Assembly (NCBI GenBank): GCA_963727805.1
Contig: CAVSHF010000003.1
Coordinates: forward strand, 1,440,001-1,504,000
Length of the DNA stretch: 64,000 bases
Reading direction: 5' to 3'
DNA from: an uncultured Nitrospiraceae bacterium
Lineage (GTDB): Bacteria > Nitrospirota > Thermodesulfovibrionia > Thermodesulfovibrionales > Dissulfurispiraceae
The first letter of the stretch is position 1. Every line of letters starts with the position of its first letter. A program made the translations under genes and the position numbers. The notes below the pieces were generated by a model that did no database searches, had not been told where the DNA came from, and saw only the letters and a list, made by a program, of their open reading frames with translations. This document shows positions 16,025 to 19,809 of the stretch, one piece after another.

Positions 16025-16843
16025 TTAGAACAGATATTCCCTAAATAGATGGAGGCCTCTCTTGTGCTCGTCGGACAACTCATAGTCAAGCATGTTCCAG
16101 TAATCAATGATTGTCTCTTCCCTCATAAAAGCCTTCATGGGCGAATGACTCACGATCTCACGCAGGTTTTTCAGTGATTCTTCTTTTGCCTTCAACAGAT
16201 CGTCGGTAAATTTCATAAAGAGATCGTGCCTCACATCGTCGGGATTATACAGCTCTTTCCGTACAATCCAAAGAGCAAAGACAAAGGGGAGTCCTGTCTT
16301 TTCATGCCATATTTCGCCAAGATCATAAACAAACGCAGAAGCGCCGATGTCCTTAAGTGTCGCATGTTGAATTTTGATCCTTGAATTGTACTTCAGGGCT
16401 TCATCCCCTATGAGTAGAAACGCTTCCGCATCTATCGATTCGGGATTTGTTGAAACCGTCAAGTGGCAAGAAACGCCATAAAATCTTTTAAGAATGATAT
16501 GGAGAAGGGCAATGGAGGTCTCTGACTGAGATGTGACGTATATGGTGCATCCAGCAAGAGTCCCGATTGGTCTCTTGCTGAAAAGAAAAATGCTTCCCAC
16601 AGGGCCCTTCGAACTGACCGAGATGCCGTCTACATACCCGTAGAGTAAAGGGTTGTGCAGATATTCGATCGATGATGAAGGACTGAGGTCAATTGAGCCC
16701 GCCCTGAGCATCCCGTTCAGGCTTGAGGGAACGCCTTCGACAAAATCATAGCATGAACAGTCGAACTCTTTTTCGAGAGTATAGAAAATCGGGAAAAGAT
16801 TGGCAAAAGGTATTCTTCCGACCTTCAGTCTCCGGTCCGCCAT
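16025..16843 (-). CDS. mqnA: Chorismate dehydratase, futalosine menaquinone pathway
   Basis: GRIPFAN..P, PSSLN, SETS, LLIGDEAL, DLGEIW..TGLPFVFALW. Confidence 0.88.
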   Translation of the reverse strand: MADRRLKVGRIPFANLFPIFYTLEKEFDCSCYDFVEGVPSSLNGMLRAGSIDLSPSSSIEYLHNPLLYGYVDGISVSSKGPVGSIFLFSKRPIGTLAGCTIYVTSQSETSIALLHIILKRFYGVSCHLTVSTNPESIDAEAFLLIGDEALKYNSRIKIQHATLKDIGASAFVYDLGEIWHEKTGLPFVFALWIVRKELYNPDDVRHDLFMKFTDDLLKAKEESLKNLREIVSHSPMKAFMREETIIDYWNMLDYELSDEHKRGLHLFREYLF

Positions 16844-18288
16844 TATCCCTTTATCACTCCCATCGGCCTCAGCCGAGCAATCTTTCGGGCAATCCCAGCA
16901 TTGTGGACCACGTCCACTACGTTTGATATATTCTTATAGGCTTCAGGCATTTCTTCGGCAAGGATCTCTCTTCCAGCAGACCTGACAATTATGCCCTTAT
17001 CTTCCAGTTCCTTCCTTATCGTCCGCCCCTTTGCCTGCCTTATGGCCTGGTGTCGCGACATGATCCTACCCGCTCCATGACAGGCTGAACCGTAGGTCTC
17101 ATACATGGCCTTCTCCGTTCCAATGAGCACAAAAGACGCCCTCCCCATGTCACCGGGGATGAGAACCGGCTGACCGAGTTGCCGATAAATACCAGGGAGT
17201 TCGGGATGGCCCGGCGGGAAGGCCCTGGTGGCCCCTTTGCGATGGACGATCACTTTTTTCTTTTTACCGCCGATCACGTGCTCCTCGACTTTCGCGATAT
17301 TATGCGCCACGTCGTAAACCAGATTCATCCCAAGATTGGCCGGCGATGACTTAAAGAGACCCATAAATGTCTCGCGCGTCCAGTGCATGAGACACTGCCT
17401 GTTGGCCCAAGCATAATTCGCCGCAGCCCGCATAGCACCCAGATAAGCTTGCGCCTCGCGGCTTCTGAATGGCGCGCACGCCAGCTCCCTGTCAGGTAGT
17501 TCGATTTTATATTTCTTAACCGCCTCCTCCATGACTTCGAGGAAATCAGTGCATACCTGATGACCGAAACCGCGCGATCCCGTGTGGATCATCACTGTCA
17601 CATCGTTTTTGAAAAGTCCAAGCGCATTTGCGGTATTTTCATCATATATCTCGTCGATATACTGCACTTCGAGAAAATGGTTGCCCGAACCTAGCGTACC
17701 CTGTTGCGCTCGTCCCCGTTCATAGGCCTTAGCGCTTATTTGATCGGGATCGGCGCCGTCGATGCATCCCCCCGATTCGATCCTGTCGAGGTCAGTCATA
17801 GAACCATATCCTTCCTCGACAGCCCATCGTGCCCCTTTGAGGAGAAGCTTCCTCTCAGAATCGGGGCCGAGCCGTATCCGGCCTTTCGAACCGACTCCAG
17901 CCGGTATCTCGTTATAGAGGGCCTCGACGAGGTCTCTGATCCTCGGAGCTACCTGTTCCCGTGTGAGGTTGCTCCTGAGGAGTCTGACCCCTCAATTGAT
18001 ATCGTATCCAACACCCCCAGGCGATAATATCCCCTCGTCAAGATCAAAGGCCGCCACCCCTCCGATGGGAAAACCATAGCCGGTATGGATGTCCGGCATG
18101 GCGAGTGACGAGCCAAGAATCCCCGGGAGTGTGGCGACATTTGCTACCTGGTCGATGCATCCCGGTTCAAGCCCCTTTTCGAGAATGGCGTCCGCAAAGA
18201 TGATCCCGTTTGTTCTCATGCCTGATTTGTAGTCCTTTGGGACCTCGATCCTATTGTCGTCTATCCTTTTCAGCTTGTCCAGAGACAT
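16843..18288 (-). CDS. rtcB: RtcB RNA ligase, 481 aa, with in-frame UGA at codon 99 (putative selenocysteine)
   Basis: ORFs 17992..18288 and 16843..17799 share a frame. The linker reads [17 protein letters not shown]...IPAGVGSKG with no other stop. [33 protein letters not shown] and CHGAG are intact. Confidence 0.9.
17929..17991 (-). promoter_or_regulatory. Putative bacterial SECIS hairpin immediately 3' of the rtcB UGA
   Basis: Nested pairings GGGGUC/GACCUC, UCCUC/GAGGA, GGAGC/GCUCC, ACCU/AGGU around the loop CACACGGGAAC. Confidence 0.65.
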
Positions 18289-18315
18289 ACGGACCTCCTC
18301 ATTTACCTCGAATTC

Positions 18316-18729
18316 TCAGATATCAAAGATAACCTCTACTTCACACCGACCGCCGCTCTTATCGACCCTGATATTGTGATATGTCGCCGCCTTTAAAAGC
18401 AACCTCTGCTCATGTTTCCGCGGGTCGAACTCTTCACCATAAACCTTTGCCCTGATAAATGCTGCCGAGAATTCTGTGACCTCGATCCGCTTGCCTATGA
18501 AGTTGTACGTATCAAAATGGAAGATTAGTTCGTTGAGATACTTCACCAGAAGACTCTCGAGCGAATCTGATGAAATGTCTATTTCGAGCGTTTTTCTTTC
18601 TCCTATCTGCTCTAGATCGGTGATCAGACTGTACATCCCGATGCCGACGTTGCCCCAGGCCTCTGCACAATCACTTCCATACGCCTTAATGCCTGCGTCA
18701 CCGAATATATCGATAACTTCATAATTCAT
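18316..18729 (-). CDS. Archease (RtcB activator)
   Basis: YEVID..GD, YLNELIF, GEEFDP, LKAATYH, C-terminal IFDI; directly upstream of rtcB. Confidence 0.92.
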   Translation of the reverse strand: MNYEVIDIFGDAGIKAYGSDCAEAWGNVGIGMYSLITDLEQIGERKTLEIDISSDSLESLLVKYLNELIFHFDTYNFIGKRIEVTEFSAAFIRAKVYGEEFDPRKHEQRLLLKAATYHNIRVDKSGGRCEVEVIFDI

Positions 18730-19753
18730 ACTTACATGATATCATAAGCCTCGGTTGACCACGGGCTATCGAAACCTGCTGATAAAGATTTCAACAAACA
18801 TACCTCTCATTTAAAAATACAGTTGTGAGAGTTGGTGCCAACACTGGAATTTCAACATTCGTCCTGCTGTCGCACAGGTTATGGGAGTTCGAACGCGGCG
18901 AGACCGCTGAGTAGTGCATTAAGGACAATGGCAATATTGACACTGATACAAAGAGCCTCTGCCCATCCCTAATCAAATGCAGCGCATTAAATCAACACCT
19001 TGCAGAATTGTCTAAGGTATTTGCTGTGGGTAAAATGCATTCCTTTGAAGTGAAAACCATCGCTGCTGTTCACTTGTTCGCCATCGAAGCATAGGTTATT
19101 AACCTAGCCGTTGTGCGCACACTGGCATATCGCCAGAGCAAAGGTTCGCGTTCCCTCTATGGTAACCAAGTCCATCTAGGATGCACTGATACGCACATAC
19201 TGCCATGATCGTCTGCTCCAGTCGTATCTGTGCACCAAGGAGTGAAACTGAACTACGGCAATGAAAAAGCAGTGCTAGGTGTCAATTAAGCTCAGGTGCG
19301 AACAACAAAAGCAGTCACAGTAGCCCTGGCACCCATGGTGGCCAATTATGCGTTCCTATTTATTACCGTAGCTTATTCAAGAAATGGAACATCGCTCTGC
19401 CCTTACTAAGGTGGCCGGCGGCGACCCCTCAGACGAGAGTTTCTACTGCCGAGTGCTCGGAGTTTGTGCTCTCAGTTGATAATCATATAGAGGACACCTC
19501 CCGAGCATACCATTTGGCGAACTGCTGAGCAAGGAGGCGATTGATTCACTCACGAGACAGATAAAGGCAAAATAGGTGGTAGTGGAAAAGAAGATAGATC
19601 TGAGGAACCCCTATGATCTTCTTCTAAGTAACCAGGAGTGGGGGAAGGTAATCGGCGTGCCTTTACCCAATTTCGCCGATTGCAACACGCAGATGAAAAG
19701 ACGGTTATATTCCACAAAGATTGCAATTTGATTTCTTAATGCGTTTAGATCGC

Positions 19754-19787
19754 AAAAAAAAGAGGCAAGGTCTAATGACCTTGCCTC
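19754..19787 (-). terminator. Intrinsic terminator after the FN3/repeat gene
   Basis: GAGGCAAGGTC-4nt-GACCTTGCCTC followed by a T8 run on the minus strand. Confidence 0.85.
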
Positions 19788-19809
19788 CGTTCGACTTAAA
19801 TTGATCAGC

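Follow-up and report, generated by a model that had tools for sequence, protein, structure and literature searches.

A predicted selenocysteine variant of the RNA ligase RtcB with an atypical recoding hairpin in Nitrospirota

Introduction

How is an RNA ligase made when its gene carries a stop codon in place of the cysteine that bridges its two catalytic metal ions? The question is raised by rtcB in a 64,000-nucleotide stretch of DNA (hereafter, the window) from an uncultured Nitrospiraceae bacterium, where a single TGA interrupts the frame at codon 99. In the RtcB cycle, GTP guanylylates H404, GMP moves to the RNA 3'-phosphate, and the 5'-OH attacks. The bridging Cys has been called the "Achilles heel" of the enzyme, its oxidation being followed by metal release (PMC13247085), and animals rely on PYROXD1 to guard this residue of RtcB/RTCB (PMC13247085; PMC12263435; PMC10653391).

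The original prediction held that UGA99 is recoded as selenocysteine (Sec). As a prediction it is supported by the analysis presented here: other contigs retain the TGA, related genomes share it, the genome encodes Sec machinery, and none of the refuting outcomes that could be checked was seen. We regard this rtcB as a real, widely distributed variant of a known enzyme, predicted to be a selenoprotein, and in this lineage its recoding hairpin is atypical. Judging from sequence, the product is probably a full-length, archease-partnered RtcB in which UGA99 is decoded as Sec, so that selenium would replace the sulfur bridging two catalytic Mn ions.

The rtcB gene and its neighbourhood

The gene lies on the minus strand (16843-18288) and, with TGA99 read through, comprises 481 codons followed by TAA, encoding an archease-type RtcB 3'-phosphate/5'-OH RNA ligase. 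Translation confirmed that the two RtcB open reading frame (ORF) fragments noticed earlier form one frame, and that its only internal stop is the predicted Sec codon (17992-17994, minus strand). A Shine-Dalgarno-like GAGGAGG, recognized by its sequence, stands 5 nt ahead of the ATG (18294-18300, minus strand). The gene for archease, the known RtcB activator, is located 27 nt upstream (18316-18729, minus strand; PF01951) and ends in an ordinary TGA stop. Downstream, a gene of a menaquinone-biosynthesis family (16025-16843, minus strand; PF02621) has an ATG that shares one base with the rtcB TAA, and is followed by yajC-secD-secF-recJ, which gives rtcB a housekeeping context. On the other side, about 1 kb between archease and a fibronectin-III-domain gene (18730-19800) is free of ORFs of 90 or more amino acids.

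The read-through protein covers the whole of Pfam PF01139 (positions 1-426 of 426; E 1e-179; 598.6 bits, cut-off 27) and aligns over residues 5-481 with Pyrococcus horikoshii RtcB (1uc2; E 3.5e-191), codon 99 falling on C98. The remaining active-site motifs, earlier described as intact, were all located (MPDIH at residue 64, GSGNH at 200, HTGSRG at 235, AHN at 328 and CHGAG at 403). D96, U99, H204, H235, H329 and the nucleophile H404 correspond to D95, C98, H203, H234, H329 and H404, the ligands listed for the P. horikoshii enzyme (PMC10630183). The alignment to C98 and published accounts of that residue (PMC10630183; PMC13247085) thus agree with the proposal that TGA occupies the position of the metal-bridging, oxidation-sensitive Cys. 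Whether a thiol or a selenol is found there depends on how the codon is recoded.

The gene is the only rtcB match in this genome. The closest named homologues, at 81-82% identity, are labelled Dissulfurispiraceae, Nitrospirota, and all of the best 120 full-length database homologues have Cys at the codon-99 position. No Sec form is among the four NCBIfam models matched; against the model for intein-containing RtcB (NF038162) the protein scored 778.7 bits, below the cut-off of 1150, and it contains no insert. A single-sequence AlphaFold model was uninformative (pLDDT 32). Gene callers cut the predicted Sec-RtcB in two, and databases carry the product as pieces of 98 and 318 amino acids. In the 90% cluster of the 98-aa fragment, 13 of 13 members end at the same DIN.

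TGA as a stop codon and as a possible error

Those database pieces might indicate that TGA99 is a real stop, in a pseudogene or a split gene, and TGA is indeed a common stop in this genome. Of 42 ORFs checked in the window, 10 terminate in TGA; so do 518 of the 1489 ORFs in the genome that encode at least 300 amino acids. The earlier observation that it acts as a normal stop in uvrD and yebC was verified and extends to archease. Decoding of TGA as Trp, or a global recoding, was rejected since TGA is a normal stop and Trp occurs at the site in none of the sequences checked. Against a real stop, two separate pieces would be without the bridging ligand, and RtcB is inactive once this residue is replaced (PMC13247085).

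An error in the assembly was also considered. Four runs compared over 17900-18100 showed no difference at 17992-17994, as judged from contigs rather than raw reads. Among contigs bridging codon 99, one is identical (X1, possibly the source), two are diverged DNA contigs (X3; 4 and 17 differences), and one comes from an RNA run (X15; 7 differences), which is no proof of transcription. At the contig level, then, independent diverged sequences retain the codon that the original prediction wished to see confirmed, and the contigs give no sign that TGA arose in assembly.

Distribution of TGA- and Cys-type rtcB

RtcB was found in 61 of 61 genomes in a search of relatives. The site was readable in 60 of their genes (the window included), with TGA in 20, TGC in 30 and TGT in 10; outside these 60, one gene has TGA beside an assembly gap (G041) and another is without the site (G005). 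The frame continues for 382 more codons to the natural stop in 19 of the 20 TGA genes and closes at 324 in the other. In one genome, two rtcB genes lie on separate contigs, one of the TGA type and one of the TGC type (G054; L187 and L189).

A pattern scan of genome contigs, which selects for TGA and hence yields no frequency, returned at least 120 TGA rtcB loci in several phyla. The 80 titled loci belong to Nitrospirota, Thermodesulfobacteriota/deltaproteobacteria, Acidobacteriota, Binatia, Eisenbacteria, Gemmatimonadales and Polyangiaceae. The pattern had 0 matches in viral contigs, and the best RtcB relatives in phage records were below 60% identity. Taken together, the 20 of 60 relatives' genes and the at least 120 scan loci establish that the TGA is shared and not private to this genome, the outcome on which the recoding proposal depended. 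Three of the 74 scan loci that close within the flank do so early, one of them in a genome where no Sec genes were found, as might be expected if TGA were a real stop; the other 71 are full length. The same codon followed by intact frames in many genera and phyla, together with its retention in the diverged contigs, makes a real stop or an assembly error extremely improbable.

Of the seven motif patterns, six are kept in 85-87 of the 87 Sec rows, and the seventh misses only a clade-specific Ala-to-Cys change ahead of H329. This second Cys was considered as a resolving partner of Sec and discarded: although 48 of 49 non-Nitrospirota Sec rows have it, so do 108 of 109 Cys-type homologues from that clade, and the protein encoded in the window does not. 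It is a clade trait.

In site-masked trees, Sec/Cys changes numbered at least 14 among 125 rows (FastTree; starred branches force 8 of them), at least 13 among 74 rows (4 forced; IQ-TREE quick, two non-Nitrospirota rows included) and at least 27 among 234 rows (14 forced), counts that cannot separate gain from loss. The occurrence of two SECIS designs in TGA-type rtcB, described below, would imply turnover or separate origins.

The hairpin downstream of codon 99

A SECIS-like hairpin, which the original prediction did not mention, is predicted at 17940-17981 on the minus strand (+14 to +55, the T of TGA being +1). It has a 5-bp lower stem, a bulged A19, an upper stem and a loop of 9-11 nt that starts at +30/31. 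When the first 13 nt were blocked, as they are in the ribosome, +14 to +55 folded into a single extended stem-loop in which pair probabilities are 0.8-1.0. This hairpin ranks 3 in stability among the 554 genomic TGAs that are followed by 250 or more open codons; ranks 4 and 6 are two formate dehydrogenase-like Sec sites, named from their motifs.

The hairpin goes together with the TGA codon. Its mean energy was -21.9 kcal/mol in TGA genes (n=20) versus -7.4 kcal/mol in Cys genes (n=39), compared with a difference of -1.0±1.0 in 22 control windows, and the synonymous-shuffle z was -3.9 (n=20) versus -0.3 (n=38). Within a single genus, at similar gene GC, the values for two TGA genes are -20 and -24, against -5.5 to -8.2 for five Cys genes. 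Across the 20 TGA genes, 85% of cells are paired and 6 of 16 pairs have two-sided changes; none of 500 shuffles reached as high a percentage, slid registers gave 42-60%, and Cys genes in the same register 60%, although these figures overstate the case because the structure was derived from the same sequences and kin are not independent. Arg occupies codon +17 in 18 of 20 TGA genes versus 16 of 37 Cys genes, and the hairpin constraint thus extends to the protein sequence. Two TGT genes retain the hairpin (G048, -22.4; G050, -21.6), which suggests recent reversion. A hairpin specific to TGA genes is a further argument against a real stop.

In consensus bacterial SECIS elements, loop position 1 or 2 is a G, a rule to which the 2026 review admits some exceptions (PMC13188914). 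Its Fig. 2A gives a UGA-to-loop distance of 16-37 nt, a minimum free energy of at most -7.5 kcal/mol and an apical loop of 3-9 nt (PMC13188914). With its loop 26-27 nt past the codon and an energy of -20 kcal/mol, the window hairpin lies within the limits of spacing and stability. The apical loop is 11 nt in the best fold and 9 nt in the shared register, and neither of the first two loop nucleotides is a G in folds that come within 1 kcal/mol of the optimum. It is for this reason that we term the hairpin SECIS-like and not a consensus SECIS. The apical G is present in 20 of 44 Nitrospirota TGA rtcB genes versus 14 of 37 Cys genes, and in 85 of 89 TGA-type rtcB genes from other lineages, which use another hairpin, a short one whose loop is near +25.

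The G rule is otherwise followed in this lineage. The fdhA-like and selD sites of this genome comply, as do 27 of 30 selD genes of relatives when any loop is accepted (the first loop alone gives 13 of 27, picking a small upstream hairpin). Since selD loops in the same lineage reach out to +36, distance is not the cause of the missing apical G in rtcB. One selD subtype of the relatives (L219-L234) places its G-containing loop at +36/37, close to the maximum of the consensus spacing. By these comparisons the rtcB hairpin is under TGA-linked selection, but it is not a consensus SECIS. SelB carrying Sec-tRNA(UCA) would be recruited to UGA99 by this +14 to +55 element.

Selenocysteine machinery

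The original prediction called for a search for selA, selB, selC and selD, and a complete set was found: selA, selB, tRNA-Sec(UCA) and two selD, all over curated cut-offs. Both selD genes carry in-frame TGA, and only one selB exceeds the cut-off. Among relatives, selA and selB are present in 21 of the 21 TGA genomes; with selA over cut-off in 57 and selB in 60 of the 61 genomes, co-occurrence does not discriminate there, and kin are not independent. For 61 non-relative TGA loci that were chosen, 50 genomes were testable, and 48 of them had a selA match (46 over cut-off). In a phylum sample, selA was found in 119 of 221 genomes overall versus 22 of 23 TGA genomes among the matches listed. Likewise among the matches listed, 23 RtcBs with one TGA are all of the window's class, the position being unchecked for 9 of the 23. 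In one family (f21) selA is present in 37 of 38 genomes and no TGA occurs among the listed RtcBs, so that Sec machinery is not sufficient for a TGA-type rtcB.

In two TGA genomes, G089 and G103, neither selA nor selB nor tRNA-Sec was matched (150 RNA candidates scored per genome; completeness not given), and together with the missing apical G they count against a Sec reading. In G089 the frame closes 133 codons past the TGA, as would be expected of a gene in decay or of a sequence error (L090). A third genome, G266 (98% complete), has selB and tRNA-Sec and no selA match. The rtcB gene of G103 (L122) is of the TGA type and has a full frame and the hairpin despite no Sec genes being found.

Cysteine tRNAs of the selC* type

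UGA99 could instead be read as Cys in this lineage, through a selC*-type tRNA-Cys or through near-cognate read-through stimulated by the hairpin, in which case the product would be an ordinary Cys enzyme. We judge this very unlikely, and yet several observations favor it. An Rfam search detected two selC*-type tRNA-Cys(GCA) genes in this genome, of 126 nt (G000:C3:994192-994317, minus strand) and 117 nt (G000:C3:960046-960162, minus strand), both with a very long extra arm, U73 and G1:C72, and both missed by ARAGORN. There is also a short second cysS-like gene of 406 aa (G000:C3:1748741-1749952, minus strand) that covers profile positions 1-401 of 466, the C-terminal part being absent. Transfer RNAs of this type were described from Thermodesulfovibrio, and their UCA forms are able to insert Cys at UGA (PMC5389517; PMC7609411). 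The departure of the rtcB hairpin from the SECIS G rule would also fit.

The likeness to the selC* tRNA-Cys/CysRS* system of Mukai et al. (PMC5389517) comprises the Sec-shaped tRNA-Cys, the U73, the origin in Thermodesulfovibrio/Nitrospirae and the short second cysS. The difference lies in the GCA anticodon, which would not read UGA by normal pairing, and in that no second selB over the cut-off was found here. CysRS* has been tied only to the UCA/A1:U72 forms of selC* (PMC5389517). No Sec-shaped tRNA-Cys with UCA appeared among the loci examined: both copies in this genome, and 27 of 28 selC*-type loci overall, have GCA, the lone UCA match being a tRNA-Sec sequence. By motif scan and ARAGORN, the canonical tRNA-Sec is the only credible UCA tRNA of this genome, an additional ARAGORN call with a 581-nt intron being implausible. 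The BLAST search for copies in other genomes misses diverged ones, and a UCA form is possible elsewhere. A link of selC*-type tRNAs to the TGA state was rejected for the genomes compared, where they are present in 10 of 21 TGA and 15 of 39 other genomes (p 0.59), one of the 10 being tRNA-Sec. In addition, the homologous TGA in other phyla is accompanied by a consensus SECIS loop, and a TGA with a constrained hairpin merely to insert Cys would bring no evident gain over TGY. Decoding as Sec remains the preferred reading.

One selC*-type tRNA gene is upstream of a YeeE/YedE-like transporter gene; downstream of the second is the gene for the small subunit of a [NiFe] hydrogenase. In relatives the extra arms vary in length, and all anticodons are GCA.

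Possible cleavage of the chain at residue 99

Sec has been placed at the same residue by design, in an engineered P. horikoshii RtcB (Haruna et al. 2014). That U98 protein was an artificial amber-codon reporter made in Escherichia coli, and it cleaved itself close to the Sec while the C98 and S98 forms stayed intact (PMC4150793). It is thus conceivable that in the natural protein Sec is inserted and the chain then breaks at or near it, by an intein-like acyl shift or by oxidative loss of selenium, leaving a two-chain or short-lived enzyme. In relative G045, TGC opens an intein located between DIN and the Cys; the extein codon is TGT and no hairpin follows (L199). Three more genomes have the same split pattern. 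The position of residue 99 is therefore a natural intein junction, which keeps a cleaved natural form a live rival. On the other hand, the U98 form is an artificial derivative of an enzyme of the Cys type, and the cited section of that paper contains no activity data (PMC4150793). Natural TGA genes are full length across several phyla, which implies a working product, and we consider cleavage very unlikely.

As in P. horikoshii, the G045 intein directly precedes the catalytic Cys; the other three genomes (G161, G190 and G215) are known from split matches alone.

Comparison with known enzymes and possible function

An intact Sec-RtcB would resemble the Cys-type, archease-dependent enzymes (P. 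horikoshii PH1602, 1uc2/4dwq; Thermus thermophilus TTHA1785, 2epg; human RTCB) in its full-length match, metal ligands, H404 and adjacent archease gene. It differs from them in a bridging residue that is encoded by TGA with a hairpin downstream. Apart from a selenolate as the bridge between its two Mn ions, the enzyme would follow the usual RtcB cycle, with the archease from the adjacent gene presumably assisting.

Reversible oxidation is the benefit usually proposed for Sec, and likewise for [NiFeSe] hydrogenase. If RtcB dies by oxidation of its Cys, and oxidation of selenium reverses more readily, Sec would protect the site. Under Se shortage translation would halt at codon 99, leaving a 98-aa fragment, and ligase supply would follow selenium. 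FdhA and the [NiFeSe] hydrogenases, including Group 4 (PMC13582414), offer a parallel in the use of Sec for a metal-binding Cys, the patchy Sec/Cys distribution and the SECIS-like remnants in Cys relatives. However, these enzymes carry out redox chemistry at Mo/W or Ni, whereas RtcB uses two Mn for ligation, a non-redox reaction, and the G found in 100% of Group 4 [NiFeSe] SECIS loops (PMC13582414) is not a constant of the Nitrospirota rtcB hairpin.

The original prediction regarded Sec in a non-redox ligase as unusual. This is right in that RtcB is non-redox, but non-redox selenoproteins are already known, such as methylated-DNA-protein methyltransferase and a CTP-synthase-related protein, both in the 2026 catalogue (PMC13188914). 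RtcB and ligases are absent from the searched text and Table 1 of that review of 119 prokaryotic selenoprotein families (PMC13188914). RtcB is also absent from deep-Sep (text and four supplements) and from the text of the Eight Unexpected Selenoprotein Families preprint. Two RtcB reviews do not contain "Seleno" (PMC13247085; PMC10630183), and the relevant parts of the engineered U98 paper make no mention of a natural Sec-RtcB (PMC4150793). None appeared in the titles or abstract beginnings of full-text search matches, among which the paper on the engineered reporter was the one of relevance, a search whose scope excludes subscription journals.

A broader interpretation is possible, and we offer it tentatively, as more doubtful than the Sec reading itself. 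Sec-RtcB might be a widespread, uncatalogued RNA-repair selenoenzyme in which selenium bridges two Mn ions and spares the site oxidative inactivation, with many Sec/Cys switches even within one genus, and with a class of SECIS in Thermodesulfovibrionia that needs no apical G. If true, a nucleic-acid ligase would join the selenoproteome, many split annotations would be repaired, and SelB recognition without an apical G would have a natural test case. Natural Sec/Cys pairs from one genus, at 82-87% identity, would allow selenium at a binuclear metal site to be tested for oxidation tolerance, metal use and turnover. A natural Sec-RtcB could also show how the self-cleavage of the engineered enzyme is avoided.

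A blind codon-model screen for further selenoproteins of this genome was unusable, giving 1151 noisy candidates. One other site (G000:C3:717732, minus strand), where a long frame contains a TGA within the motif PQN*GP and a hairpin has G in its loop, looks like a further selenoprotein, presumably a radical-SAM-like one.
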